From positions 30,224 through 94,223 of IMG/VR virus record IMGVR_UViG_3300031949_000004: a DNA stretch of 64,000 bases; one strand, written 5' to 3'. The notes beneath the pieces are model-generated. The model was not told the DNA's origin, searched no databases, and worked only from the letters and a program-made list of their open reading frames with translations. This DNA is from a virus. The stretch's first letter is position 1. The number at the start of each line of letters is the position of its first letter. The translations under genes were made by a program, and so were the position numbers. Positions 1,732-54,994 of the stretch are shown here, in pieces.

Positions 1732-2697
1732 ATGAGCGAATTTCACGTTGAAGTAGCGCGAGTGACGAACGTCCAGAAGCACCCGAACGCCGACACGCTA
1801 TCAGTCGCCGAGGTGAACGGTTACCCGGTGATTTTCCGCACTGGCGACTACGCCGAAGGTGATCTAGCCGTCCACGTCCCGATTGATGCCATCGTGCCCG
1901 ACGTTCCAGCGTGGGCGTTTCTTGATGGCCACCGGCGCATCAGGGCCAAGCGACTGCGCGGCGTGTTCTCGATGGGGCTGCTTTCCAAGGCGTTGCCAGA
2001 GTGGACGTTTGGGCTAGACGTTCAGGCGGAACTCGGGATCGAGAAATGGGAGCCGGTATCACCGGCGATGATTGGGGGCGACGATGCGCCGGACGCTGGC
2101 GTGTTGCCGGTATACACGGACATCGAAGGCTACCGCCGGCACAAGGGCGTCCTCGTGGACGGTGAGGAAGTCGTCATCACCGAGAAGATTCACGGGGCAA
2201 ACGCGCGCTTCTGCTCTCACGATGGCACGCTGATAGTCGGCTCGCACAAGCGGATCAAGAAGGTCTACGGAACCGACCACCCGTCGATGTGGGCAAAGGT
2301 TGCGCTCGACTTGGATCTCGACGAGAAGCTGGCCGAGGTGCCCGACGTTGCAATCTACGGCGAGATCTACGGGCAGGTTCAGGATCTCAAGTACGGCAAG
2401 ATGGGGACCGATCTGGTGTTGTTCGACGCGATGGATTTGCGAACGCGGCGCTACCTCGATTGCGATGAGTTCTTGGCAGTGGCCGAACGTTTCGGACTTC
2501 CGACGGTTCCGCAGCTCTACCGGGGGCCATGGAGTGCAGAGCTTCTCGCGCTTGCGGAAGGTCGCTCTACGGTTTCCGGTGCCGACAACATCCGTGAGGG
2601 GTTCGTGGTCAAGCCGGTTCGCGAACGATGCGAGCACATGGGGCGGGTGATTCTCAAGATGCTGGGTGAAGGCTACCTTTTGCGAAAGGGCGCGTGA
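1732..2697 (+). CDS. ATP-dependent RNA ligase, DraRnl/Rnl2-like, with N-terminal tRNA-binding OB (Myf/CsaA-type) domain
   Basis: The N-terminal EVARVTNVQKHPNADTLSVAEV matches the tRNA-binding OB-fold signature (HPNAD). The nucleotidyltransferase motif I is EKIHGAN (KxHGxN, as in T4 Rnl2 KIHGTN). Size about 320-343 aa, like DraRnl. GGGGG RBS upstream of ATG 1732. Confidence 0.7.
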   Translation: MSEFHVEVARVTNVQKHPNADTLSVAEVNGYPVIFRTGDYAEGDLAVHVPIDAIVPDVPAWAFLDGHRRIRAKRLRGVFSMGLLSKALPEWTFGLDVQAELGIEKWEPVSPAMIGGDDAPDAGVLPVYTDIEGYRRHKGVLVDGEEVVITEKIHGANARFCSHDGTLIVGSHKRIKKVYGTDHPSMWAKVALDLDLDEKLAEVPDVAIYGEIYGQVQDLKYGKMGTDLVLFDAMDLRTRRYLDCDEFLAVAERFGLPTVPQLYRGPWSAELLALAEGRSTVSGADNIREGFVVKPVRERCEHMGRVILKMLGEGYLLRKGA

Positions 2698-18581: not shown

Positions 18582-19727
18582 ATGAACTTCACGGGAAAGT
18601 ACGCGTCGTGCGAGGTCATGATCGATGATATCGATCAAAGCGCGGTCCAGCAGATCTACGGGTTCTTGAACTGCGAGGTGTTCGCCGGCTCCCAGATCCG
18701 AATCATGCCTGACGTGCATGCCGGCATCGGCTCGGTGATCGGCTTCACCGCCACGTTGGGGGAGAAGATCATCCCGAACGTGGTCGGGGTGGACATCGGC
18801 TGCGGCATCGCGAGCTACTGCCTGGGGCGAGGCATGCCGCTCGACTTCGATGCTCTGGACAAGCACGTTCGCAAGAGTGTGCCGAGCGGGTTTTCCGTTC
18901 ATGTCGCCCGGCCGAAGTTTCTCGGTCTGGCGGATGATCTGCTTTCGCAGGCGGCGCGCGTGGCCCACGAGACGGAGCAGGACGAGGCACGCGTGCTCCG
19001 GTCGCTCGGTACCCTGGGAGGCGGCAACCACTTCATCGAGTTGGGCAAGGACGAAAACCGGGATGCTTGGCTCACCATCCACACGGGCTCGCGCAACTTC
19101 GGGCTCAAGGTGGCCGAGTATCACCAGCGCAAGGCGAGCCGTATGCCTGGTAAGGGCGATGTGCTGGCATACCTCGAAGGCGAGGAGGCCGCGCTTTACT
19201 ACGAGCACATGAAGGTCGCCCAGGAGTACGCGAGGATGAACCGTGTGCTCATCGCCAGGGCGCTCATCTCCTTCTTCATGCCCGAGGCTTGGGACGCGTG
19301 GGAGAAGACGTGGGAGGAGAGGGAGCTGGATGTCGTGGAGAGCATCCACAACTACATCGACTTCGAGGATCGGATCATCCGCAAGGGCGCCATCTCCGCG
19401 CACGAGGGGCAGCGGGTGGTGATCCCCTGGAACATGCGCGATGGGCTCATCATCGGCCGGGGCAAGGGCAACGCTAACTGGAACTGGTCGGCGCCGCATG
19501 GGGCAGGGCGGGTCATGTCGCGGGGGGCGGCTCGCAAGAAGCTCGATGTCGCGGACTTTGCGAAAACCATGGAAGGGATCTGGACCTCGTGTGTGGGCAA
19601 GGCAACGCTCGACGAGGCACCCATGGTTTACAAGGATCCGAATACCATCGAGCAGGCCATCGGTGACACGGTTGATGTCGAGCTGACCGTCAAGCCGCTC
19701 TACAACTTCAAGGCGAGCGACCAGTGA
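18582..19727 (+). CDS. rtcB: RNA-splicing ligase RtcB
   Basis: Motifs MPDVHAGIGSVIGF, VGVDIGCGI, GGGNHFIEL and SAPHGAGR are RtcB metal-binding and His-GMP signatures. Confidence 0.85.
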   Translation: MNFTGKYASCEVMIDDIDQSAVQQIYGFLNCEVFAGSQIRIMPDVHAGIGSVIGFTATLGEKIIPNVVGVDIGCGIASYCLGRGMPLDFDALDKHVRKSVPSGFSVHVARPKFLGLADDLLSQAARVAHETEQDEARVLRSLGTLGGGNHFIELGKDENRDAWLTIHTGSRNFGLKVAEYHQRKASRMPGKGDVLAYLEGEEAALYYEHMKVAQEYARMNRVLIARALISFFMPEAWDAWEKTWEERELDVVESIHNYIDFEDRIIRKGAISAHEGQRVVIPWNMRDGLIIGRGKGNANWNWSAPHGAGRVMSRGAARKKLDVADFAKTMEGIWTSCVGKATLDEAPMVYKDPNTIEQAIGDTVDVELTVKPLYNFKASDQ

Positions 19728-26068: not shown

Positions 26069-26382
26069 TGTTCCTGGTGCGCGCGTTCCTGGAATTTGAC
26101 GTGTTCCTCCTGGTTTTCTTGACCTGGGAGGTTGCCGTGCCGATCTTACGTGGACGGCCCCGGTTTCCCATCTGTCGATGGATCGGGCGCCGGCTGCTGC
26201 GTCTGGCTCCCAAGTCCACGACCACCGAGACCTTGCTTGAATCTTCGACACGTCGCATGCGCGAGGCGAAGGTGCGTCTGGACGCCGCGAAGACTGATCT
26301 GCTTGCTGCCGAAACAGAGCAAAAAGCTCTGGAGATGGAAGAGGCGACGAACGAACTGAGAGAAAAAGGAGGAGACCGATGA
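26068..26382 (+). CDS. small membrane/coiled-coil protein
   Basis: N-terminal hydrophobic segment and an AKVRLDAAKTDLLAAETEQKALEMEE coiled coil. Confidence 0.3.
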   Translation: MFLVRAFLEFDVFLLVFLTWEVAVPILRGRPRFPICRWIGRRLLRLAPKSTTTETLLESSTRRMREAKVRLDAAKTDLLAAETEQKALEMEEATNELREKGGDR

Positions 26383-27626
26383 GTCACGAGACCACCCCCC
26401 GCAAGACGAGTTCTGGTTGGACCGTTACCAAAGTGATCGCCCTAGTCGCCGTGCTTGCCACGGCAATTGTTCTCGTTTCCATGATCCGAGGCGTCTTCGA
26501 GACGGTCGATGCCGGCGAGATCGTCGTTAAGCAAGGCTTCTTCTCGGGCGAGCTGACGTTCTGGAAGGATCCTGGCCCGAAGCTCCAGATGTGGGGCAAA
26601 TGTACCCACTACAAGAAGTCGTCGCAATACTGGTTTTCCAGCCGAAACGATCAGGGTACGCAGGTCGACCAGTCCATCCAGCTTCGCTTCAACGACGGTG
26701 GTCACGGCAAGCTTTCGGGCAGCGTGCGCTACAACCTGCCGTCCGACGATACCAGTATGAAGCTTCTGCACGAGCGATACGGCTCCCAGGAGGCCATCGA
26801 CCAGTCGCTCATTCGCACGACCTTCGAAAAAGCGGTCTACATGTCCGGCTCGCTCATGTCGAGCACGGAGTCTTTCGCGGCGAGGCGCAACGAGCTTCTG
26901 GGGCTCATCGAAGATCAGGCCGAGCGGGGCGTCTACAAGTCGTCCTCGTCTTGCGAGCGGCAGATGGATCCCGTCACCAAGTCCGAGAAGACCGTGTGCG
27001 TGGTCAAGCTGGAGCACGATGACAAGGGTCAGATTGCACGCGTAGAAGCCTCCCCGCTCGCCGCCTACCACATCACCTTGACCAACTTCTCGATCAACGA
27101 GCTGTCCTACGACAAGGAAGTGAGCAATCAGATTCAGGCGCAGCAGTCCGCCATCGCGGCCATCCAGACTTCGGCCGCGCAAGCTCGGCAAGCCGAGCAG
27201 GGCGCCATCACGGCGGCCGAGAACGGCAAGGCGCTGGCGGCGACGGCGAAGTGGAAACAGGAGGTCATCAAGGCCGAGAAGGTGACCGAGGCCGAGCAGC
27301 AAAAGGAAGTGGCGAGGTTGGCCAAGGAAGCCGCCGAGTACAAGAAAGCCGAGCAGATCTTGTTGGGCGAGGGCGAAGCTGCACGTAAGAAGGCTGTCAT
27401 GATCGCCGATGGCGCACTTGAAAAGAAGCTGGCCGCGCTCATCGAGATTAACGGCAAGTACGCCGAGGCGTTCGGCAAGCAGTCGCTCGTGCCCGAGATT
27501 GTCATGGGCAGCAGCGGTGGCGGAAACGCTGCCTCGAATGCGGTTTCGCTGGTGGACATGATGACGGTCAACACGGCCAAGCAGCTCGGGCTTTCGTTGC
27601 GCGTTCCTGGAGTGCCGGGCAAGTAG
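26379..27626 (+). CDS. membrane-anchored SPFH/band-7-like protein with Ala/Glu/Lys-rich coiled-coil tail
   Basis: N-terminal TM helix VIALVAVLATAIVLVSMI, then a beta-rich domain, then an A/E/K-rich helical region of about 120 aa (QAEQGAITAAENGKALAATAKWKQEVIKAEKVTEAEQQKEVARLAKEAAEYKKAEQ). Confidence 0.4.
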   Translation: MSHETTPRKTSSGWTVTKVIALVAVLATAIVLVSMIRGVFETVDAGEIVVKQGFFSGELTFWKDPGPKLQMWGKCTHYKKSSQYWFSSRNDQGTQVDQSIQLRFNDGGHGKLSGSVRYNLPSDDTSMKLLHERYGSQEAIDQSLIRTTFEKAVYMSGSLMSSTESFAARRNELLGLIEDQAERGVYKSSSSCERQMDPVTKSEKTVCVVKLEHDDKGQIARVEASPLAAYHITLTNFSINELSYDKEVSNQIQAQQSAIAAIQTSAAQARQAEQGAITAAENGKALAATAKWKQEVIKAEKVTEAEQQKEVARLAKEAAEYKKAEQILLGEGEAARKKAVMIADGALEKKLAALIEINGKYAEAFGKQSLVPEIVMGSSGGGNAASNAVSLVDMMTVNTAKQLGLSLRVPGVPGK

Positions 27627-46156: not shown

Positions 46157-46429
46157 TCAGTACACGTTCTTCCGATCGCCTGCGCGCATGACCATCACAA
46201 CGAGATCTTGGTCGAGAATGTCGACAACGATCTTGTAGCTGCCCACTCTGTAGCGCCAGTAGCTCCCCAGCCGTGACCCTTTCAACGCTTTCCCGAGTGT
46301 CCTTGGGTCGTCAAGTGGCAACACTCTTTCCATCAGGTAGGCAACCAGACGTCGCGCCACCTGCTGATCTATCGCATCCAGGTTGCGAACCACTTCCGCA
46401 GAATACAGGAGTCTCCAGGGGCGAGGCAT
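46157..46429 (-). CDS. type II toxin, RelE/ParE family
   Basis: LKGSRLGSYWRYRVGSYKIVVDILDQDLVVMVMRAGDRKNVY matches the RelE/ParE core (YR(Y)RVGDYRI...HRK.VY). Confidence 0.6.
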   Translation of the reverse strand: MPRPWRLLYSAEVVRNLDAIDQQVARRLVAYLMERVLPLDDPRTLGKALKGSRLGSYWRYRVGSYKIVVDILDQDLVVMVMRAGDRKNVY

Positions 46430-46765: not shown

Positions 46766-46842
46766 TGGTCTCCCCGGCGGGACTCGAACCCGCAAGCTCC
46801 CGTTTAGGAAACGAGCGCCAGTTCCATTCTGGCTTCGAGGAG
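46766..46842 (-). tRNA. tRNA-Arg(CCT), CCA encoded
   Basis: Hand-folded. Acceptor CTCCTCG/CGGGGAG, anticodon stem CTCGT/ACGGG, loop TTCCTAA, T-arm GCGGG-TTCGAGT-CCCGC. Confidence 0.55.
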
Positions 46843-46901
46843 AAAGCCCGGCGAGGTGGCCGGGGAAGTTGATCAAAGCGGCGGTGACAGCGAGGCGCCC
46901 G

Positions 46902-47426
46902 CTACGGCTGTAGCGGTGCCCGCCAGTAGTTGGCCCATTCGGGCGGTGCCTTGCGGTCGAGAGGCACCAGGATGTGCGGCAGGTTGTGAGGCTTCTTGGG
47001 CACCGCGCGAAGCCTCATGCCGGCCTCGGCGAGGGTTTTGTCCGCCTTGTTCCGGTTGCAGTCCACGCAGCAGGCGGCGACGTTCTCCCAGGTCGTTCGG
47101 CCGCCCTTGGAGCGAGGCACGACGTGGTCGAGCGTCAGCTCTTCGGTGACGAACCTGCTGCCGCAATACTGGCAGGTGAAGTTGTCGCGGGCGTAAATGT
47201 TGATGCGCGAGAACTTGATCCTCATGCGCTCGCGCTTGAAGCTGCGCACGAGCTTCACGACCGAGGGCATGGGCCAGGTCTGGCTGGCGCTTCGGATCGT
47301 CTTGTCGGCGCTGTACTCGACGACCTCAGACTTGCCAAGCAGGACGTCGCAGAACGCCCGCTGCCAGGAGTCGACCCTGAGAGGTTGCATGCCGACATCG
47401 AGAACCAGAACTGCTGCGGTTGACAT
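46902..47426 (-). CDS. HNH endonuclease
   Basis: CQYCG...LDHVVPRSKGG...WENVAACCVDCNRNK is a classical HNH. Confidence 0.7.
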   Translation of the reverse strand: MSTAAVLVLDVGMQPLRVDSWQRAFCDVLLGKSEVVEYSADKTIRSASQTWPMPSVVKLVRSFKRERMRIKFSRINIYARDNFTCQYCGSRFVTEELTLDHVVPRSKGGRTTWENVAACCVDCNRNKADKTLAEAGMRLRAVPKKPHNLPHILVPLDRKAPPEWANYWRAPLQP

Positions 47427-47479
47427 GATGACTGTTTCCTTGTGTTGCGGCGGTCAATGTTGCGGGGTTGTTTTCATGT

Positions 47480-47569
47480 GGTGCCGAAAGGGGGAGTCGA
47501 ACCCCCAGCGCCCGTGAGGGCACACGGGTTTGAGCCGTGCGTGTCTACCAGTTCCAACCATTTCGGCAT
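47480..47569 (-). tRNA. tRNA-Leu(CAA), CCA encoded
   Basis: Acceptor GCCGAAA/TTTCGGC, anticodon stem CACGG/CCGTG, loop CTCAAAC, long variable arm. Confidence 0.6.
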
Positions 47570-47577
47570 AGTGTTAC

Positions 47578-48040
47578 TTAGGGAAGCATCGTAATACCTT
47601 TTTCAACTTCTGCATGACAGTTTTTGCACACCAATACACATTTCTTCCACTCAATCACAATTGCCTCCCACGATCTTGACCACAGGTTTGACGTGCCTAG
47701 CTGAAATAGTTTGGTGTTCCTGTCCCTGTGATGAAAGTCCAAAGCTCCTGAATACTTGTTGTAGCCACATAGAAGACAACACCCTCCCGACATTTCTATG
47801 AGTCTGCATCTTCGTTCTTTTCCACGTTCTACGGTTCTCTCTGCATACCGCCTGCGATCTTCAATGGGGAGTTGGTGATAGTCTCGCATTCTCCTTGATG
47901 GTCGAGACGGATCGTCGACTTTGGTGTTATGGGCGCCGAATGGCGAGCAAAGTAGACAAAATTTTCGCGTTTGAAGGAACCTGATCTTGCCGTCGAGTCG
48001 AATGCTCCAGGGTATTCGGGCACCACATTTCCTACACAGT
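47578..48040 (-). CDS. HNH endonuclease-like protein
   Basis: CLLCGYNKYSGALDFHHRDRNTK...CKNCHAEVE is an HNH/zinc motif. The N-terminal part of the called ORF (to 48150) is a tRNA translation (SNPS), so the true start is downstream. Confidence 0.45.
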
Positions 48041-48046
48041 CTCTTT

Positions 48047-48122
48047 GCCCGCACGGAAGGATTTGAACCCTCAACCCGTTGGTTCATTACGCCTAACTGC
48101 TCTGCCAATTGAGCTACGTGCG
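48047..48122 (-). tRNA. tRNA, isotype undetermined (irregular anticodon arm)
   Basis: Canonical acceptor CCGCACG/CGTGCGG, D-arm GCTC-AATTGGCA-GAGC and T-arm. The anticodon region has 3-4 extra nt and could not be folded canonically. Confidence 0.4.
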
Positions 48123-48202
48123 GATACCGGCGTCGCCTGTCAATGAGCACACATCATTTTACCACTAAGCTAAGACACTGTAACATTAGGCTATTGTTGG
48201 TA

Positions 48203-48340
48203 GGGGCAGAAGGGTTTGAACCTCCATCCCGGTTTCCCGGACCTGCTTTTGGACGATGCCCCTTTGGTGGGGAGGGGTAGATTGACCTACCATCCCTTGG
48301 GCCGAAACCCGCTGGTGTCTTACGTTAGACGACCTCCCCT
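48203..48340 (-). other. two tRNA-like elements, not resolvable by hand
   Basis: T-arm motifs (GGTTCAAACCC) and acceptor-like ends with CCA (tggtagggg, tggtgggg) are present. D and anticodon regions are non-canonical. Confidence 0.25.
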
Positions 48341-48346
48341 CATTTG

Positions 48347-48750
48347 TCAGCGGTAGAGCGGTAGCTCCGACACCACCTTTCTGACCGGGCGACGGTCGTT
48401 CACGAGGGCGATCCCTATAGCGGTTGCCTGGCCCGTGTACGGGGGATCTACCTCTTCGATGAGGGTGTGGTCCACCTTGGCCTCCGCGAGCCTGCGCGCG
48501 AGCGTACGAAGCCGGGGCTCGTCGGCGGCTTGCAGGAGAACCACGTGGGTCTCCGGCGGATGCGGCGCCTGGGCGCCGGCTGCATGGGCAATCTGCGCGG
48601 CGGCGAAGCCCCTTGGGAGATCGGCACGCGCGATGATGTAGGCCGTGGGGGGGAGGGCGGGACCGGTGTTAATGGATCGAGCGACGCATGTTCCCAGGAT
48701 ACACACGTTTGAGATCTCGTCAAGGGGCTTGACAGAAAAGCCGGTCATGG
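48347..48750 (-). CDS. peptidyl-tRNA hydrolase, PTH2 family
   Basis: YIIARADLPRGFAAAQIAHAAG matches the PTH2 core (vvRxDLxMxxGKiaAQcxHAa). The ORF's N-terminal extension is spurious. Confidence 0.5.
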
Positions 48751-48964
48751 CATCATAGGATCTCGCGCTGGGAACTGGCTCAGCAATGAACGGCTCGGCT
48801 AACTGGATTGCCCGAGCCGTTCGCTTTTTCAGCGCCCTGCTCGATAGGCCCGAGCTTTCAAGGCGTGGGCATGTCGGCACAGGTCGCATCGGCAACCGCA
48901 CTGCCCGCGATATGGTCCCCAACGTTTAACCTCTGGAATCATGGCTGCCATTTTACCACGCTTG

Positions 48965-49038
48965 TACTCGGGATGGGATTCGGACCCACAACAACAACGT
49001 TCTGAACGTTGGGCCTCTTCCAGTTGGGCTACCCGAGC
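48965..49038 (-). tRNA. class-I (short variable arm) tRNA with anticodon CAG (Leu codon CUG)
   Basis: Acceptor GCTCGGG/CCCGAGT, anticodon stem CAACG/CGTTG, loop TTCAGAA, 5-nt variable loop. Confidence 0.45.
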
Positions 49039-49044
49039 ATGTTG

Positions 49045-49125
49045 TGGAGGAGAAAGGAATCGAACCTTCACGTCTTTCGACACCGGGGCTTAAAGCCGGC
49101 GCGGCTGCCATTTCGCCACTCCCCC
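49045..49125 (-). tRNA. tRNA-Leu(TAA)
   Basis: Acceptor GGGGGAG/CTCCTCC, loop TTTAAGC, 13-nt variable arm hairpin. Confidence 0.5.
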
Positions 49126-49135
49126 AAGACAATTG

Positions 49136-49219
49136 TGCGAACAGCGGGGATCGAACCCGCAGTGCTCTTACGAGCCCGGCACCTCAAGCCGGTGCGTCTT
49201 CCAGTTGCGCCATGTTCGC
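49136..49219 (-). tRNA. tRNA-Leu(GAG)
   Basis: Acceptor GCGAACA/TGTTCGC, anticodon stem CCGGC/GCCGG, loop TTGAGGT, long variable arm. Confidence 0.6.
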
Positions 49220-49224
49220 ATGAG

Positions 49225-49299
49225 TGGGGACACCGGGACTCGAACCCGGAGCTTCTTGTTCCTAAGACAAGCGCCTCGTTCCAGTTGGGCTATGTCCCC
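49225..49299 (-). tRNA. class-I (short variable arm) tRNA with anticodon TAG (Leu codon CUA)
   Basis: Acceptor GGGGACA/TGTCCCC, anticodon stem CTTGT/ACAAG, loop CTTAGGA. The D-arm is nearly identical to the CAG tRNA at 48965. Confidence 0.45.
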
Positions 49300-49300
49300 G

Positions 49301-49374
49301 TAGTCCGCGAGGGAGTCGAACCCCCAACCCGTCGCTTATAGAGCAACTGCTCTACCCATTGAGCTACCGGACCA
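49301..49374 (-). tRNA. tRNA, Ile(TAT)-like anticodon
   Basis: D-arm GCTC-AATGGGTA-GAGC, anticodon stem GTTGC/GCGAC, loop TCTATAA (C at position 33). Confidence 0.4.
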
Positions 49375-49386
49375 TTGTTGTCTCTG

Positions 49387-49458
49387 CGGTGCCACCGAGA
49401 GTTGAACTCGGGCTTCTGCCTTGACAGGGCAACGTCAGTTCCGCTTGACCATGGCACC
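49387..49458 (-). tRNA. tRNA-Asp(GTC)
   Basis: Acceptor GGTGCCA/TGGCACC, loop CTGTCAA. Confidence 0.6.
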
Positions 49459-49806
49459 ATGTTGACACTTCCTCGAACAATAAAACCGCCTTGTTCCGAT
49501 TCGTATACCCCATCTGTATTTATATCCTGCTAATACAAAACTTTCAGCACAGAATGCACAACACAGGGTTACCACTGTTCCTCGTTTGATGTTGTGTTTG
49601 CTTACATGTTGACCTTTCATCGTCTTCTCAAGGTTAGAGAATTGGTTGTCCTGCTTGTTTTCGTTTTTGTGGTGAACCTCTTCCCTCAAGCGCATTACTT
49701 CGCCGGTGTTCTGCCACCACACGAGATGGTGTTCATAGCACTGGTTTTTCGCGTAGATTTTCCCAGGGTATCCAGGAGGGGCGATGACCTTCTTGTAGGT
49801 AGACAT
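49435..49806 (-). CDS. HNH endonuclease
   Basis: EEVHHKNENKQDNQFSNL (HH...N...DNxxNL) plus CCAFC...CSRKCQH zinc ligands. The 3' end overlaps tRNA-Asp by about 24 nt. Confidence 0.55.
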   Translation of the reverse strand: MSTYKKVIAPPGYPGKIYAKNQCYEHHLVWWQNTGEVMRLREEVHHKNENKQDNQFSNLEKTMKGQHVSKHNIKRGTVVTLCCAFCAESFVLAGYKYRWGIRIGTRRFYCSRKCQHGAMVKRN

Positions 49807-49848
49807 TGCCAACACCTTACCATTTGATCGGGCGATGAAGTCCAAAAT

Positions 49849-49922
49849 TGGTTGGAGGTAAGGGACTTGAACCCCTCTCTTCGGCGTGTAGGACCGAGGC
49901 ACAACCTCTATACCAACCTCCA
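49849..49922 (-). tRNA. tRNA-Val(TAC), CCA encoded
   Basis: Acceptor TGGAGGT/ACCTCCA, anticodon stem TCGGT/GCCGA, loop CCTACAC. Confidence 0.45.
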
Positions 49923-49926
49923 GTAG

Positions 49927-50000
49927 TGCGCGCAGCAGGAGTTGAACCTGCGGCCTTCGCCATGTCGAGGCGGTGCTCTTCCAGGCTGAGCTATGCGCGC
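49927..50000 (-). tRNA. tRNA-Val(GAC)
   Basis: Acceptor GCGCGCA/TGCGCGC, D-arm GCTC-AGCCTGGAA-GAGC, loop TCGACAT. Confidence 0.55.
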
Positions 50001-50004
50001 GTGA

Positions 50005-50256
50005 TCAGGAACGTACGGACTTGCGCCCGGCGAGTTCTCGGGATGAAGCTTCGATGGAGCTGCGCACATCCTCGGGCAGCTCGCTCATGTCGATCCTTCT
50101 GCCCTTGAGCTTTCCCGTGGCCAGCTTGCCGATGACACCGAGGAACTCGTCGCGATCTTTCGGGGCGAGCGTGCTCAAGAACATCTTGGCCTGGGTCGAC
50201 ATCTGGATAGCCATGGTCTTCGGCCTGCTTGTCGACTTTCGCCTTTTTTTGGGCAT
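50005..50256 (-). CDS. small basic hypothetical protein
   Basis: N-terminal PKKRRKSTSRPK. Confidence 0.3.
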   Translation of the reverse strand: MPKKRRKSTSRPKTMAIQMSTQAKMFLSTLAPKDRDEFLGVIGKLATGKLKGRRIDMSELPEDVRSSIEASSRELAGRKSVRS

Positions 50257-50259
50257 CCG

Positions 50260-50616
50260 TCAGCTCAAGTAGGACACGACCTCGTAGCGGTTCGAGGGCA
50301 TCTTGTGCCAGGTCAGCACCCAGGAGAATCGCTGACGCTCGGAGTCCCGGTGCTTATAGACCGTGCTCATCCGCCCCTCGCGCCCGCACAGAATGAATGC
50401 CTCTTCCTGGGGATCCTCGGCCGAGAACCCGTGCTCGTGCATGAACTCCATGATGGGGCTCACGGGGATCGCCTCGAAGTAGGTGTTGTGCGTGAGCTTC
50501 GAGAGGAAGTCGTTCACGGCGTCCTTGTCGTGCTTGAGGGTCTTCCGGGTGGCAGCCATGGGGTGGCCGCGCTCCCCTAGACCGAGATCATTCGGGCGAT
50601 CACGAAAGCTTGGCAT
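50260..50616 (-). CDS. hypothetical protein
   Basis: 118-aa ORF adjacent to the small basic ORF inside the tRNA array. Confidence 0.3.
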   Translation of the reverse strand: MPSFRDRPNDLGLGERGHPMAATRKTLKHDKDAVNDFLSKLTHNTYFEAIPVSPIMEFMHEHGFSAEDPQEEAFILCGREGRMSTVYKHRDSERQRFSWVLTWHKMPSNRYEVVSYLS

Positions 50617-50746
50617 GCCTTTATCCTGCTCCTGATCTTGGCGACCGTCAACCCGTTACGAATGCGCTGCGTTGTGGCGCCAGCGGGTGCCGCCCCCGCC
50701 AATCCTGGCTTATGAAACCTGGTCGAGCTGCTAGGCTCTGGCGCCG

Positions 50747-50823
50747 TGGTGTCCCCGCCCGGAGTTGAACCGGGAACTCAGGTTTCGTAAACCTGTGTGA
50801 TATCCAGTTTCACGCACGAGGAC
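50747..50823 (-). tRNA. tRNA-Arg(ACG), CCA encoded
   Basis: Anticodon stem CAGGT/ACCTG, loop TTACGAA. Confidence 0.65.
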
Positions 50824-50824
50824 A

Positions 50825-50901
50825 TGGTACCCGCGAGAGGACTCGAACCCCCACAGACTCGATCCGAAGTCGAGTGCCCTTTTCCATTAGGCGACGCGGG
50901 C
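50825..50901 (-). tRNA. tRNA-Arg(TCG), CCA encoded
   Basis: Anticodon stem CTCGA/TCGAG, loop CTTCGGA. Confidence 0.65.
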
Positions 50902-50909
50902 ATGTTGTG

Positions 50910-50983
50910 TGATCCCAGGGGGACTCGAACCCCGCATTCCCGGCTTGAAGGGCCGGTGTCCTGACCGATTGGACGATGGGACC
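50910..50983 (-). tRNA. tRNA-Glu(TTC)
   Basis: Anticodon stem CCGGC/GCCGG, loop CCTTCAA. Confidence 0.6.
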
Positions 50984-50986
50984 GGG

Positions 50987-51065
50987 TGGTGATCTCGGGG
51001 GGATTTGAACCCCACATTCCCGCCGTGAGAGGGCGGTGTCCTGAGCCGGGTTAGACGACGAGATC
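50987..51065 (-). tRNA. tRNA-Glu(CTC), CCA encoded
   Basis: Anticodon stem CCGCC/GGCGG, loop CTCTCAC. Confidence 0.6.
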
Positions 51066-51073
51066 GTGTGTAG

Positions 51074-51148
51074 TGTCCTCGGCCGGAATCGAACCGGCAA
51101 CCTCGACGTTCGGAGCGTCGTACTCTGATCCATTTGAGCTACGAGGAC
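51074..51148 (-). tRNA. tRNA-Arg(CCG)
   Basis: Anticodon stem CGACG/CGTCG, loop CTCCGAA. Confidence 0.65.
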
Positions 51149-51149
51149 G

Positions 51150-51317
51150 TTTGGTAGCTTCGGTGTAAAAGTCCAAGCCTCCCCACCTTCGTCGCATGTG
51201 ATGCTTCATCCATTCGATGAAGTGTCGGTAACAACGACCGCAGTATGCAACCGCGAACTCTCGAAACAGGTGTCCGGTTGCTGGGTGATAAGGCCCACCA
51301 CAAGCAAAGCAACGCAT
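51150..51317 (-). CDS. small zinc-binding hypothetical protein
   Basis: MRCFACGG...YCGRCYRH. The called ORF extends further 3' into a tRNA. Confidence 0.2.
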
Positions 51318-51330
51318 GATTTCCTTTCCG

Positions 51331-51404
51331 TGCGCCCGGCAGGAGTTGAACCCGCAACCTTCCGTGTAGAAGACGATTGCTCTTGTCCATTGAGCTACGA
51401 GCGC
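51331..51404 (-). tRNA. tRNA-Arg(TCT)
   Basis: Loop CTTCTAC. Confidence 0.55.
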
Positions 51405-51543
51405 ATGTTGATGAATTGGAGCCCGCCGGCAGGATTACCCCACCCCGAAGGTATTCTAGTAGTGACCCCGCGCGAGGTCAGGAACATGGCTTATTAGGCC
51501 ATCGATAGCCTTCCAGTGGTCTGACGACCACAACGGACATAAG

Positions 51544-51615
51544 CTCCGGGAACTGGGATCGAACCAGTGACTTCACGCTTAACAGGCGTGCCGCTTTCCT
51601 CTCGCGTACCCCGGA
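51544..51615 (-). tRNA. tRNA-Asn(GTT)
   Basis: Anticodon stem CACGC/GCGTG, loop CTGTTAA. Confidence 0.65.
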
Positions 51616-51635
51616 ATATCTATTGAAACAACTTG

Positions 51636-51709
51636 AGCTGGTGAGAGGAATTGAACCCCCAACCAACGCATTACAAATGCGCTGCTCTACCTATTGAGCT
51701 ACACCAGCG
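51636..51709 (-). tRNA. tRNA-Thr(TGT)
   Basis: Anticodon stem GCGCA/TGCGT, loop TTTGTAA. Confidence 0.65.
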
Positions 51710-51711
51710 TA

Positions 51712-51803
51712 GCGGGGACCGGATTTGAACCGGTGAAACCTGGCTTATGAGGCCAGTGGGTTTCGATCTGACGTGAGCCAGACCTCCATACTTCCCTACC
51801 CCG
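51712..51803 (-). tRNA. tRNA-Met(CAT)-like with atypical 5' region (about 23 extra nt in the D region)
   Basis: Anticodon stem CTGGC/GCCAG, loop CTCATAA, T-arm ACCGG-TTCAAAT-CCGGT, acceptor 3' strand present. The segment between the acceptor and the anticodon arm is too long. Confidence 0.3.
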
Positions 51804-51806
51804 CAG

Positions 51807-51878
51807 AGCCCACGCGGGGAATCGAACCCCGTTCTCCGGCTTACGAAACCGGCACATCACCATCTATGCTTCGTGGGC
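51807..51878 (-). tRNA. tRNA-Thr(CGT)
   Basis: Acceptor GCCCACG/CGTGGGC, loop TTCGTAA. Confidence 0.6.
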
Positions 51879-51957
51879 GCGTATCCGGTTCTCGCACAAT
51901 CCAGTGCAGCGTTGTGCCTGACGCTGGAGAGCTGAAGAGGGTCGAGAACCGTGTGGT

Positions 51958-52032
51958 TGGAGCGACGTACAGGAGTTGAACCTGCGCAATGCTGCTTGGA
52001 AGGCAGCCGCCTTACCGTTCGGCCAACGTCGC
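51958..52032 (-). tRNA. tRNA-Gly(TCC), CCA encoded
   Basis: Anticodon stem GCTGC/GCAGC, loop CTTCCAA. Confidence 0.65.
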
Positions 52033-52038
52033 ATGTTG

Positions 52039-52110
52039 AGCGGATGATGGGACTCGGACCCACGTCGTCCACCTTGGCAAGGTGGTGCCTGGCCTCTAGG
52101 CTACATCCGC
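52039..52110 (-). tRNA. tRNA-Gly(GCC)
   Basis: Anticodon stem CCACC/GGTGG, loop TTGCCAA. Confidence 0.65.
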
Positions 52111-52117
52111 GTGCTTG

Positions 52118-52189
52118 AGGTTCCATCCCGGATCGAACGGGAGATGCTTGATTTGCAGTCAAGTGCCTTACCAACTTGGCTATGGAACC
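52118..52189 (-). tRNA. tRNA-Cys(GCA)
   Basis: Anticodon stem CTTGA/TCAAG, loop CTGCAAA. Confidence 0.65.
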
Positions 52190-52198
52190 AGATCGAAG

Positions 52199-52284
52199 AG
52201 GAGAACGGTGGTCACGATCCACACAACCTTTCGACTGCCCTTGGTTTAGCAAACCAGGACGCCCCCAAGGGCGCTTCGCTCTCC
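52199..52284 (-). tRNA. tRNA-Ser(GCT)
   Basis: Loop TTGCTAA, long variable arm, non-canonical T-loop ATCGTGA. Confidence 0.5.
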
Positions 52285-52432
52285 AGGGGACCGGAATACA
52301 GGGCTGCTTTGGCTTCGATGAAGCATTGGTGCCCCAACCGGTCCTAGAGGAAGGCGGTGGTCTTGATCCACATGCCCGAGGGCACCATCGGTGTTCGAGG
52401 CCGTGCGTGCGTCCCTACACGTTCACCTTCCG

Positions 52433-52526
52433 TGGAGGAGAGTGGAGGTATCGAACCTCAAACCCGAATCAACGAGTTCGCTCCGGCTTCCAACCGGGCC
52501 TGACTCCCATAGTCAGCTCGCTCTCC
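52433..52526 (-). tRNA. tRNA-Ser(GGA), CCA encoded
   Basis: Loop TTGGAAG, long variable arm, T-arm GGAGG-TTCGATA-CCTCC. Confidence 0.5.
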
Positions 52527-52815
52527 ATGGTGGCCCCGTTCGACATGCAGGCCGGGGCCGGCGCCTGGTTACCCTACCGCGCGGGCACGATGCGGAAGCG
52601 GGGTTGCTTCTTCACGGTGCCGGGCTTGCCGTACTGCTGACCTTGCAGCATGTACTGGGCAACCTTGTCGGCCGCCGCTGGGTAGGTGGTGAACGTGCCG
52701 CCGATGGGATACCAGCGACCGTCCACGAGTTGCTCTACTTGGTACATGTGTCACCTCCGATGATGTATCGGAGGGCGCTACAAAAAGTCCGTGGCCATGT
52801 CCCTTTCCTTTCGCT

Positions 52816-53259
52816 CTAGGTGATGTTCCAGCGATCCCAATGCTCGTACCAGGCCGGCATCAGCAGCTCGTCAAAGTCGCCGTGCTCGTGGTTGAGCAAC
52901 TGCTTGGCCCGGCGACGGATTTTCCTGTGCGCCATCTTGCGGTAGTACCGGGCGATGCGAAGGTTGCAGCCGTAGTGCCGCCGCCAGGGGTGGAAGTGTG
53001 GCGACAGCAAAGGAACGACAATCTGGCCTTCGAGCGTGTCGACCACGCTCCTGGCGTCCCCATTCTGGTAGTAGGCGATCCTTCCGGGGCGGCCAAGCTG
53101 CTCGCTCTCGTAGGTCGCGATGAAGATCTCCGGAGTCAGCCGTCTAGCCTGTTCCAAGATCATCGTGTTTCGTTCGTACCAGGCATCGGAATGTGTGAAC
53201 GCAAATTTCTTGGCCGTGCCGGGCAAGGACGGCAAGTGTCTGAGTCGGAATGTGCGTGC
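52816..53259 (-). CDS. hypothetical protein within the tRNA array
   Basis: ORF starting at MARTFRL. The upstream extension of the called ORF is unsupported. Confidence 0.3.
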   Translation of the reverse strand, partial: ARTFRLRHLPSLPGTAKKFAFTHSDAWYERNTMILEQARRLTPEIFIATYESEQLGRPGRIAYYQNGDARSVVDTLEGQIVVPLLSPHFHPWRRHYGCNLRIARYYRKMAHRKIRRRAKQLLNHEHGDFDELLMPAWYEHWDRWNIT

Positions 53260-53461
53260 CATGTGAAGCCTCCTTATTGAGCTGACTTCATGTGGCACCT
53301 CCTTTCGGAACGATGGTTTCGAGCAATCAAGCACTGTACCTTAGTTTCGGTTTGAGAGGAAGACGGGAGTAACGATCTCCAAGCCCGAGAGGTCTTCGAC
53401 CCGAGGCTCCATCCGCTTTCAAGACGGTGCTCGGCGCCATGCCGAGTTCATCTTCCAGGTG

Positions 53462-53532
53462 CGGGTCGTGAAGGAATCGAACCCTCGTAAGCAGGTTTGG
53501 AGGCTGCCGTCCTACCGCTAGACGAACGACCC
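53462..53532 (-). tRNA. tRNA-Trp(CCA)
   Basis: Loop CTCCAAA as in E. coli tRNA-Trp. The anticodon stem has one extra nt. Confidence 0.5.
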
Positions 53533-53638
53533 AGAAATTGTGGGCAAAACCTGGCGAGTTGTTGGCGCGCGGGTATCTAATCCGCGTGTAGCCCGTATTC
53601 GAGCGAATCTTGGGATCCTCCGCCCGCTTTTGCCCTAG

Positions 53639-53710
53639 TGGAACCACGGCGAGTTGAACGCCGATTCCGAGACTGCCAGCCTCGTGTCCTCCCAGTTGGA
53701 CGATGGCCCC
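53639..53710 (-). tRNA. tRNA-Ala(GGC)
   Basis: G3:U70 present, loop CTGGCAG. Confidence 0.6.
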
Positions 53711-53858
53711 TAACGCCGGTGCTCTTCCGCTGAGCTACAAGCCATCACTACGCGACCGATCGTCGGGACATGTCCCGACGCCAATGATCGTCTTCCGTAT
53801 GCGAGCGATCTTGGACGGTGAAAGCAAGGCGGGGATCGAACCTCCGACCTCCGGCTGG

Positions 53859-53930
53859 TGGAACCACGGCGAGTTGAACGCCGATCTCGACGTTGCGAAC
53901 GTCGTGTCCTCCCAATTGGACGATGGCCCC
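53859..53930 (-). tRNA. tRNA-Ala(CGC)
   Basis: About 85% identical to the GGC copy, loop TTCGCAA, G3:U70 present. Confidence 0.6.
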
Positions 53931-54078
53931 TAACTTGGCGGTTGTTTTACCGACTGAACTACCGGCAATCCTGCTTCATGGCTAGCAACATGAACCAGGG
54001 CTCTTGCGAGCTTCCGTATGCGTGCGCATCTGGGGGTCTTGCCGAGGAGGGTTTGAACTCTCCGATTCCCGCCAATAG

Positions 54079-54151
54079 TGGATCTCACCGGAGTCGAACC
54101 GGCCGCCTCCTGGTTGCAAACCAGGCGCTCTCCCAGATGAGCTAGAGACCC
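54079..54151 (-). tRNA. tRNA-Ala(TGC)
   Basis: Anticodon stem CCTGG/CCAGG, loop TTTGCAA, G3:U70 present. Confidence 0.6.
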
Positions 54152-54717
54152 CGAAGAACCTTGCAATCAAAAACTTCAACCGCGAGATCTTGTAATCGTG
54201 CCGATCGCAACCTTCCCAACAACCTAGTATCGACAAAGGCTATTCGCTTTCGCTTGTCTCCACTTTTCTTGACATCGGCAAAACGAGCTATAACGTCATG
54301 GAGCCCATGTCCACCATCCTTGGTGTACTCAATCAAGGTTGAATGATCGGCAAAGTCCACGTACCTGCCACCCACCTTTTCTTTGTGGAAAACCGTGTGG
54401 TATTTGCGTTCAAGTATTGCCTTGATTTCAAGTTCGTCTTTGCGATACGCAAGATTGAGTTTTTCAGGTATCTCGGGATGTGTTGCATGCAATCTTGTTG
54501 CATTGTCGCCAAAGACCTTTGGCAGACATTTGTCACACCATTTGCGATGCGGTTCAATCGGTAAGCGGCATCCAGAACACCATTCCTTGCGTTTGATCCG
54601 TTTGGGGTGTTTGCGGTTGTTGTAGGATGCAGCATGCGACTGACAGCAGAACTTGCCTGTGGATCCGTGTGGAACCACAAAGATTGTCTGGCATTCTAAA
54701 CATGTACTTTGCATGTT
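54142..54717 (-). CDS. endonuclease-like protein with N-terminal zinc finger (possible homing endonuclease)
   Basis: CLECQ...CCQSH...CSGC...CDKC zinc ligands. C-terminal GGRYVDFADHSTLIEYTKDG resembles a PD-(D/E)xK motif. The 5' extension of the called ORF is a tRNA-Pro translation. Confidence 0.4.
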   Translation of the reverse strand, partial: NMQSTCLECQTIFVVPHGSTGKFCCQSHAASYNNRKHPKRIKRKEWCSGCRLPIEPHRKWCDKCLPKVFGDNATRLHATHPEIPEKLNLAYRKDELEIKAILERKYHTVFHKEKVGGRYVDFADHSTLIEYTKDGGHGLHDVIARFADVKKSGDKRKRIAFVDTRLLGRLRSARLQDLAVEVFDCKVLRGL

Positions 54718-54718
54718 G

Positions 54719-54792
54719 TCGGAGTGATCGGATTTGAACCGATGACCCCCTGGTCCCAGGCCAGGTGCGCTACCAAGCTGCGCCACACTCCG
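54719..54792 (-). tRNA. tRNA-Pro(TGG)
   Basis: Loop CCTGGGA. Confidence 0.65.
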
Positions 54793-54835
54793 ATGTTATA
54801 CTGACAAGGGTAACTATGCAACCATGTAGGATTAG

Positions 54836-54906
54836 GGTGACCGATGGGAGTCGAACCCACGATAGCTGGTTCACAGCCAGCCGCCTTACCACTTGGCTAC
54901 GGCCAC
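54836..54906 (-). tRNA. tRNA-His(GTG)
   Basis: Loop CTGTGAA and C73 discriminator. No encoded G-1 (position -1 is C). Confidence 0.6.
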
Positions 54907-54908
54907 GG

Positions 54909-54980
54909 TCCCCATGTCTGGAATCGAACCAGCATCGGTCGCTTATCGAGCGGCTGCACGAACCATTGTGCTACATGGGG
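54909..54980 (-). tRNA. tRNA-Ile(GAT)
   Basis: Loop TCGATAA. Confidence 0.55.
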
Positions 54981-54994
54981 ATGAATCACTTCGG

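Follow-up and report, generated by a model that had tools for sequence, protein, structure and literature searches.

What amino acid is delivered by a tRNA that has a leucine anticodon but lacks a long variable arm? The question is raised by two genes, with anticodons CAG and UAG, that lie in a tRNA array within a 64,000-nucleotide stretch of the IMG/VR virus record IMGVR_UViG_3300031949_000004 (positions 30,224 to 94,223; this whole stretch is hereafter termed the window). Almost all bacterial tRNALeu are of type II, i.e. class II with a long arm (PMC6614811). A preliminary description of the window, which took bacterial tRNA-Leu to be always class II, had proposed that the two short-armed (class I) tRNAs might be charged with a different amino acid, reassigning CUG and CUA, or might be specialised decoders. 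We conclude that both genes probably encode leucine-accepting elongator tRNAs which have lost the long arm and read CUG and CUA as leucine, within a phage-like tRNA array.

Anatomy of two short-armed leucine tRNA genes

ARAGORN run on the window called a tRNA-Leu(cag) at 48964-49038(-) and a tRNA-Leu(tag) at 49224-49299(-). The Rfam model RF00005 matched 48965-49038(-) with 48.2 bits and 49225-49299(-) with 60.9 bits (gathering score 29), which are exactly the coordinates first described. In the covariance-model alignment the anticodon loops UUCAGAA and CUUAGGA, of 7 nucleotides (nt) each, place CAG and UAG, the triplets first read, and no others at positions 34-36. Acceptor stems are 7 bp in both genes, the variable loops parsed from them are 5 nt each (UUGUU in Leu(CAG), AAGCU in Leu(UAG)), and neither gene encodes CCA. 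Short-loop Leu tRNAs, as in the type I tRNA-Leu of Streptomyces coelicolor, here coexist with three class II Leu tRNAs in one array, and the variable regions of the latter bear out the class assigned to them earlier (Table 1). The Leu isoacceptors of the array are non-redundant: CAA, UAA and GAG are present as class II, CAG and UAG only as class I.

The near-identical D-arm of the two genes was traced to a shared 12-mer, GCCCAACTGGAA, which has two exact copies in the window, one per class I Leu tRNA. At one mismatch or fewer it has 5 matches in the window against 0.46 expected, one of them in the D-arm of the class II Leu(GAG) gene, GCGCAACUGGAAGACGC, which is nearly the same as the D-arms of both class I genes; the D-region of the class I genes and that of the class II Leu(GAG) gene are identical at 16 of 20 positions (a hand count from two strings). 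The D-stem of both class I tRNAs has 3 bp, G10-C25, C11-G24 and C12-G23, followed by a C13/A22 mismatch, and the D-loop, which is 11-12 nt long (11 nt in Leu(CAG)), has the sequence A14 A15 C U G18 G19 A A (C) G A. Judged from its sequence, this is the D-arm layout of bacterial tRNA-Leu.

Both genes have U8, A14, A15, G18G19, U54:A58 and A73, and a U as the last base of the variable loop. As the final variable position is position 48, this U is the partner of A15. The bacterial leucine identity set, i.e. A73, U8:A14, A15:U48 and G18G19 in a Leu-type D-arm, is thus kept in both; these are identity elements of leucine tRNAs in E. coli and Aquifex (PMC6614811). The G3:U70 alanine element is absent from both, the 3:70 pairs being G-C and U-A; neither gene has an enlarged (8-nt) anticodon loop or G-1 with C73, and direct reading of the two sequences found neither serine nor histidine identity elements. 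Alanine, histidine and serine identities were therefore rejected on sequence, and the discriminator and acceptor determinants speak against the proposed reassignment. The two genes differ in detail. Leu(UAG) has G1-C72, G37 and a canonical T-loop, UUCGAGU, and starts 2 nt past the discriminator base (49301) of a tRNA-Ile(UAU) gene, which ARAGORN extends to 49300. Leu(CAG) has G1.U72, A37 and the T-loop UCCGAAU, in which C55 makes the G18:55 contact non-canonical.

Codon meaning and a family of short-armed leucine tRNAs

We then asked what CUG and CUA mean in the genes of the element that carries the array. RtcB, an RNA ligase of the tRNA-repair type encoded in the window, was aligned with 114 homologues of less than 65% identity, and a second, ATP-dependent RNA ligase with 112 homologues of less than 70% identity, and the columns under Leu codons were inspected. 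In RtcB, the column at CUG-145 holds Leu in 114/114 homologues and that at CUG-195 in 109/114. In the RNA ligase, Leu is found at CUG-97 in 112/112, at CUG-222 in 109/112 and at CUG-189 in 104/112, while the column at CUA-45 holds Leu in 112/112 and that at CUA-67 in 77 of the 112. The columns of the other CUG and CUA codons of the two genes are variable, and the same holds for some CUC, CUU and UUG codons. Because CUG and CUA align with conserved Leu columns, the element's genes use the standard code for both codons. CUG makes up 29% and CUA 4% of 722 Leu codons in 19 open reading frames (ORFs) of the element, so that a reassignment of CUG would be very costly; codon usage, which had been put forward as a check on reassignment, does not favour it either.

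To find relatives, the D-arm motif TAGCCCAACTGGAA(N)GAGGC was scanned against public viral and bacterial genome collections. Among the matches listed, it occurs in 63 IMG/VR contigs and at least 120 bacterial genome loci, and it is on these that the family counts rest. The genome loci come from Cyanobacteria (many Nostoc, Calothrix and Acaryochloris), Actinomycetota, Bacteroidota, Planctomycetota, Myxococcota, Verrucomicrobiota, Acidobacteriota and others. All 154 motif-bearing tRNAs called by ARAGORN have Leu anticodons (50 UAG, 38 CAA, 32 UAA, 15 CAG, 14 GAG and one AAG) except four frameshift-like Trp|Leu calls, and in nearly every case the variable loop is no longer than 6 nt. At 77 of 113 genome loci at least 10 tRNAs lie within 8 kb, indicating that the loci are arrays. 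A short variable loop was found in 353/399 Leu tRNAs of the motif-retrieved loci, in none of 153 Ser tRNAs and in 3/79 Tyr tRNAs. Within these loci, arm loss is confined to Leu, although the class I share itself (77-94% of Leu tRNAs) is biased by ascertainment, the loci having been fetched by a class I D-arm.

Two further observations show that this family is conserved. Firstly, 155 unique 77-mers were picked by motif position alone, with no tRNA prediction. Their acceptor, anticodon and T stems are paired in 92% of cells, compared with 39-47% when the partner is slid by 1-2 columns. Each stem position shows 4-6 standard pair types, which indicates abundant compensatory change, and a Leu anticodon occupies the anticodon columns in 143 of the 155. 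Secondly, A73 and U48 are each present in 99% of 281 unique short Leu tRNAs, compared with 45% (A73) and 54% (U48) in 1,340 other class I tRNAs of the same loci; in 161 short Leu tRNAs without the exact search motif, each is present in 98%. One scaffold thus carries both UUR and CUN anticodons (R, purine; N, any nucleotide) with A73 and U48 fixed, as leucine identity predicts and reassignment does not.

To estimate how frequent such tRNAs are, IMG/VR was scanned as a control with TAGCTCARYYGGTAGAGC, a generic non-Leu D-arm; this yielded 120 loci and 600 tRNAs. Among unique sequences, 11 of 52 Leu tRNAs (21%) and none of 35 Ser tRNAs are class I, and 10 of these 11 have both A73 and U48. Short-armed tRNA-Leu therefore makes up about one fifth of Leu tRNAs in unselected viral contigs, contrary to a 2023 review according to which long-armed tRNA-Leu is found everywhere but in animal mitochondria (PMC9976931). 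The lineage is widespread in phages and mobile tRNA arrays and is little discussed, the type I kind itself being already known.

Indeed, the best-studied case is a type I tRNALeu(CAA) of S. coelicolor, which has a 5-nt variable loop and is leucylated by the single leucyl-tRNA synthetase (LeuRS) of that organism, ScoLeuRS (Fan et al. 2019, PMC6614811). Human mitochondrial LeuRS also leucylates it, U8:A14 is an identity element in that study, the stem of the long loop is unnecessary for S. coelicolor LeuRS, and the arm is no identity element there (PMC6614811). Together with the short-armed genomic relatives above, this tRNA contradicts the statement that bacterial tRNA-Leu is always class II. 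Compared by published features, it shares with the window genes the 5-nt variable loop, U8:A14, A73 and G18G19. Its gene, by contrast, is chromosomal, essential and stands alone, with anticodon CAA and the loop ACAGC, the last base of which is C48; those of the window, with anticodons CAG and UAG and with U48, lie in a mobile array. For E. coli LeuRS, too, the long arm is reportedly dispensable (work of Larkin et al. from 2002). A lone motif-bearing class I tRNA-Leu, mostly with anticodon UAA, was also seen in the 2-8 kb fetched at six loci (L066, L089, L117, L126, L139 and L158); loci of this kind come from Thermoleophilia, Micrococcales and Actinomadura genomes (Actinomycetota), which suggests that stand-alone chromosomal type I tRNA-Leu genes exist beyond Streptomyces.

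Among arrays, the closest counterparts are those of Anabaena, Acaryochloris and Nostoc. Like that of the window, they comprise dozens of same-strand tRNA genes at a density above 2 per kb, are associated with an HNH homing endonuclease and occur in a mobile context, and their class I Leu tRNAs are of the same kind, down to the D-arm. What sets the window array apart is its location, a phage-like contig of about 194 kb that also carries RNA-repair genes. Every Leu gene in the arrays of Acaryochloris marina and two Nostoc is class I. All four Leu genes of the trn operon of Anabaena PCC 7120, located on pCC7120delta, are likewise class I; one of them, Leu(GAG), has a broken T-stem and is likely a pseudogene. 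In this operon, which is flanked by an HNH gene, 23 of 26 tRNAs were detected, aminoacylated in vivo and found in polysomes (Santamaria-Gomez et al. 2021, PMC8421152). As four of the genes are class I Leu and at most three are silent, we infer that at least one class I tRNA-Leu is charged in Anabaena. The main texts of PMC4758250 and PMC8421152 make no mention that array tRNA-Leu lack the long arm, and a literature search returned no paper describing the class I tRNA-Leu of phage or L-array clusters, which is no proof that none exists. In the array of Nostoc punctiforme NIES-2108, a tRNA of 71 nt (L162, 953-1024) has the anticodon CUA, which reads amber, and is called as Pyl by ARAGORN.

On the phage side, Streptomyces phages (TunaTartare, Faust and others) carry 75-nt genes annotated as tRNA-Leu; in TunaTartare (NC_070784), Leu(gag) and Leu(caa) are 75 nt long and Leu(tag) is 85 nt long. 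Like the window, these Stanwilliamsviridae clusters combine class I and class II Leu tRNAs, tRNA-Ile(UAU), RNA ligases and HNH/endonuclease VII genes. The TunaTartare Leu(GAG) gene (L184, 2501-2575) and the window Leu(CAG) have an identical acceptor stem, GCUCGGG/CCCGAGU with G1.U72, an identical T-stem and near-identical D-arms, and they differ in anticodon and anticodon stem. It looks as if an anticodon arm had been swapped onto a conserved "top half". Outside the tRNAs, megablast of the array region detected no DNA similarity between TunaTartare and the window. Animal mitochondrial tRNA-Leu is likewise class I with A73, but it has degenerate D/T-loop contacts and a dedicated mitochondrial LeuRS, whereas the window tRNAs keep the canonical bacterial elbow.

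Taken together, these results lead to the following model. LeuRS reads A73 and the tertiary core (U8:A14, A15:U48, and G18G19 with the T-loop) and not the anticodon nor, in several bacteria, the extra arm. The two window tRNAs, if expressed, would be charged by the LeuRS of the host, as the kept identity set suggests; no LeuRS gene was seen among the part of the window ORFs covered by profile searches. Leu(CAG) would then read CUG, and Leu(UAG) would read CUA and probably other CUN codons too, as leucine, the two genes completing the Leu isoacceptor set of the array. Most likely, the array, RtcB and the RNA ligase would between them keep the element's genes translated when host tRNAs are limiting, damaged or cleaved. 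Of the proposal that these are specialised decoders, what stands is the possibility that they are phage-supplied isoacceptors, and only that. Annotation as tRNA-Leu is appropriate for both genes.

Weighing the alternatives

Several points weigh against this assignment. Firstly, E. coli LeuRS fails to charge the S. coelicolor type I tRNALeu (PMC6614811), so that charging depends on the LeuRS of the host; compatibility between mobile tRNA-Leu and host LeuRS could for the same reason limit where such arrays work. Secondly, the codon test reports what the element's genes expect and not which tRNA delivers leucine. Thirdly, Leu(CAG) has C55 for U55, G1.U72, and A37 in place of the G37 usual in CUN readers, which can become 1-methylguanosine (m1G37), and its Rfam score falls within the lower third of the array. 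Because of A37 it would be unable to carry m1G37, which is normal for a bacterial CUN-reading tRNA-Leu. Fourthly, thermodynamic folding gave an alternative fold for Leu(UAG), not the cloverleaf that is the minimum free energy (MFE) fold of Leu(CAG); in view of its covariance-model score we treated this fold as uninformative. Finally, a body-only isotype classifier (position-weight, trained on array tRNAs with the anticodon masked and with class II alone as the Leu class), which is crude, had 78% leave-one-out accuracy and was not relied on, left the CAG tRNA tied between Arg, Leu and Ile and placed the UAG tRNA best as His, though that tRNA is without G-1 and C73. The same crude classifier assigned 124 of the 281 short Leu tRNAs to class II Leu, the largest class.

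The three unusual features of Leu(CAG) also occur elsewhere. C55 (in UCCGAAU or UCCGAGU) is found in the window in Leu(CAG) (48965-49038), Gly(GCC) and Phe(GAA) (also 52038-52110 and 55239-55311), and in several tRNAs of a related viral contig, L014 (4399-4473, 2636-2717 and 4785-4858); replacing the near-universal U55, it would remove the pseudouridine-55 site. A37, which follows G36 in Leu(CAG), is present in 36/39 CAG and 62/77 UAG members of the family. G1.U72 (or A1-U72) closes the acceptor stem in 83/155 motif-bearing class I Leu tRNAs, and in the viral control it is found in 13/40 class II Leu compared with 41/544 non-Leu tRNAs. U72 thus seems characteristic of tRNA-Leu in phages and arrays at large.

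A further question concerns the reason for the loss of the arm. One refinement of the leucine assignment, which we consider tentative and on the whole unlikely, is that the loss is adaptive: mobile tRNA-Leu would escape those toxins or nucleases of the host for which the long arm is the mark of a class II tRNA, with leucylation kept. Part of the same idea is that only Leu can change, since seryl-tRNA synthetase and bacterial tyrosyl-tRNA synthetase use the long arm and need it, and LeuRS is without a strict need for it. The Leu-specific loss (0/153 Ser and 3/79 Tyr short) is consistent with this, as are the frequency of short-armed forms in phage and mobile arrays, with 21% of Leu tRNAs in the unbiased viral sample, and the RNA-repair ligases of the element, which are typical of counter-defence against tRNA damage. 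Almost all cellular tRNALeu, in turn, are type II (PMC6614811). Candidate agents exist among the nucleotidyltransferase toxins, of which MenT3 targets tRNA-Ser and MenT1 a tRNA-Leu, while the abortive-infection toxin AbiEii appears to prefer class II (bioRxiv 10.64898/2026.01.19.700257). However, the window and TunaTartare keep class II Leu tRNAs beside class I, type I tRNALeu is also an essential chromosomal gene in Streptomyces (PMC6614811), and neutral loss under an arm-indifferent LeuRS, or selection for compactness, accounts for the same pattern. Were escape the cause, mobile tRNA arrays would serve as a store of "stealth" isoacceptors, and compatibility with the host LeuRS would be a determinant of host range. 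With defence systems directed at class II tRNAs, the Leu-specific loss of the arm has a concrete link that can be tested.

It is improbable, in our view, that the short tRNAs go uncharged in the host, whether as pseudogenes or as decoys for the tRNA-targeting enzymes of the host. The inability of E. coli LeuRS to charge a type I tRNALeu (PMC6614811) would fit such a role, as would C55, G1.U72 and A37 in Leu(CAG). Arrays do hold pseudogenes, with 3 of 26 in Anabaena (PMC8421152), where Leu(GAG) has its broken T-stem, and degenerate tRNA-like remnants lie 600 nt away in the window itself. Against this, both window genes have intact stems and good covariance-model scores, well above the gathering score, in answer to the suggestion that they might score as pseudogenes. 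They are the only CAG and UAG isoacceptors of the window, in a Leu set that is otherwise non-redundant. The tRNAs of the Anabaena operon are charged and found on polysomes (PMC8421152). Above all, the family-wide covariation, with A73 and U48 at 99% and Leu anticodons in 143/155 sequences retrieved by the D-arm, led us to reject pseudogene status.

We give next to no credence to the remaining alternative, that the class I tRNAs receive an amino acid other than leucine and recode CUG and CUA in the element's genes. Precedents exist, as class I tRNAs with NAG anticodons reassign CUN in yeast and Ashbya mitochondria and NAG tRNAs reassign CUG in yeasts (PMC7609411, PMC11342251), and the crude body-only classifier (78% accuracy) did not group the UAG tRNA with Leu. 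Yeast mt-tRNAThr(UAG), Ashbya mt-tRNAAla(UAG) and CUG-clade tRNASer(CAG) resemble the window genes in having a CAG or UAG anticodon on a body other than that of a canonical tRNA-Leu; their body is class I in the two mitochondrial cases and that of tRNA-Ser in the CUG-clade yeasts. These reassigning tRNAs, however, carry elements of their new identity (G3:U70; a His-derived body with an 8-nt loop; a Ser-type arm), and the window genes have none of these, nor G-1/C73. Moreover, most other synthetases require their own anticodon. With CUG and CUA at invariant Leu columns of RtcB and the RNA ligase, leucine identity elements in both genes, and the same scaffold bearing UUR as well as CUN, indeed all Leu, anticodons in relatives, reassignment was rejected. 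For the window, the odd tRNAs are no evidence of a code change.

The array and the phage-like element around it

The two leucine tRNAs that we take to have lost their arm are part of an array (Table 1) to which Rfam RF00005 gives 37 hits. A tRNA array unit, or L-array, has been defined by a minimum of 20 tRNA genes and a density of 2 per kb or higher (PMC4758250); the window has 38 genes in 8.8 kb, on a single strand. The mobile context and homing endonuclease of L-arrays are found here as well, in the HNH gene within the array, the phage-like contig and the synteny with L014. The array covers 18 amino acids, several with three to five isoacceptors; ARAGORN found no tRNA-Met/tRNA-fMet or tRNA-Tyr in it.

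Table 1 Features of the window, with the evidence for each call
Feature	Position	Strand	Evidence
tRNA-Leu(CAG), class I	48965..49038	-	ARAGORN; Rfam; parsed features; MFE fold is the cloverleaf
tRNA-Leu(UAG), class I	49225..49299	-	ARAGORN; Rfam; parsed features
tRNA-Leu(CAA), class II, variable region 16 nt	47482..47567	-	ARAGORN; covariance-model alignment; parsed features
tRNA-Leu(UAA), class II, variable arm 13 nt	49045..49125	-	ARAGORN; covariance-model alignment; parsed features
tRNA-Leu(GAG), class II, variable arm 15 nt, D-arm GCGCAACUGGAAGACGC	49136..49219	-	Covariance-model alignment; parsed features
tRNA array, 38 genes, 4.3 per kb	46766..55566	-	ARAGORN; 37 Rfam RF00005 hits
HNH (homing-type) endonuclease, inside array	46902..47426	-	PHROG 16726, E=1e-37; Pfam HNH_5/HNH
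ORF between Leu(CAG) and next tRNA	48347..48922	-	Sub-threshold PTH2: Pfam PF01981, E=4e-4, 20.9 bits (cut-off 23)
RelE/ParE-family toxin gene, directly adjoining array	46157-46429	-	
RtcB RNA (tRNA-repair) ligase	18582..19727	+	PHROG 1075, E=1e-121
ATP-dependent RNA ligase, TIGR02306-type	1732..2697	+	PHROG 968, E=9e-37

The start of the RNA ligase at 1732 was taken from an identical 321-aa protein in the database. A thymidylate synthase gene also lies upstream in the window, along with RtcB and the RNA ligase. The RNA ligase, RtcB and the PTH2-like ORF (sub-threshold, E=4e-4) form a set for RNA repair and translation rescue that goes with the array, the last of them lying inside it.

The window most likely belongs to a large phage genome, a phage-like element of about 194 kb. 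Databases list an identical RtcB on a contig of 194,181 bp and, on a contig of 188 kb, one of 59% identity under the name "uncultured Caudovirales phage"; relatives of an SPFH protein of the window, at 40-49% identity, are found on IMG/VR contigs of 118-185 kb. The 194-kb contig is listed as coming from JGI/IMG and ENA; a version of 140.7 kb is ERZ27256953 k141_1554128, and 20 kb of it is present in a Logan assembly of SRR9005073. Look-ups of identical proteins gave no record for the HNH protein or the major-vault-like protein of the window, and for the SPFH protein and RtcB they led to metagenomic contigs that carry no taxonomy. The 191-kb IMG/VR contig L014 is syntenic (Leu-CAA, Ile-AAU, ... 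three Leu, Ile-UAU, Asp, Val), and some of its tRNAs are nearly identical to those of the window. No virion gene was seen in the window, and a phage origin is for that reason not proven. The array region had no megablast match in INPHARED phages or PLSDB plasmids, nor the UAG tRNA a blastn match in phages.

Some neighbours of the two leucine genes are unusual in themselves. In bacteria the Ile anticodons AAU and UAU are uncommon, the norm being GAU and lysidine-modified CAU. The array holds a tRNA-Ile(UAU) (49300-49373(-)), whose counterpart in L014 (4562-4653) has a 24-nt insertion in the variable region. It also holds a tRNA called as Ile(AAU) (48048-48123(-)) with the loop GUAAUGA and a badly paired anticodon stem, in which Rfam places 3 extra nt in the anticodon arm; the GUAAUGA loop is conserved in L014 (2723-2798). 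Between this gene and the PTH2-like ORF are two degenerate tRNA-like elements. The one at 48268-48339(-), with 29.6 bits at the Rfam threshold, has good acceptor, D and T arms and a GGGU-UUCG-GCCC hairpin in place of the anticodon arm. In the other, at about 48195-48257(-), only the acceptor stem and T-arm are present.

Farther from the array, the SPFH/Band 7 protein (26379-27626; PHROG 11908, E=1e-48) adjoins a 902-aa protein with major-vault-protein shoulder and repeat domains (30615-33323; Pfam E=5e-19). A transposase-like ORF is located at 28593-29609(+), and a 634-aa protein with a Cas12f/TnpB-type C-terminal domain is encoded at 59860-61764(-).

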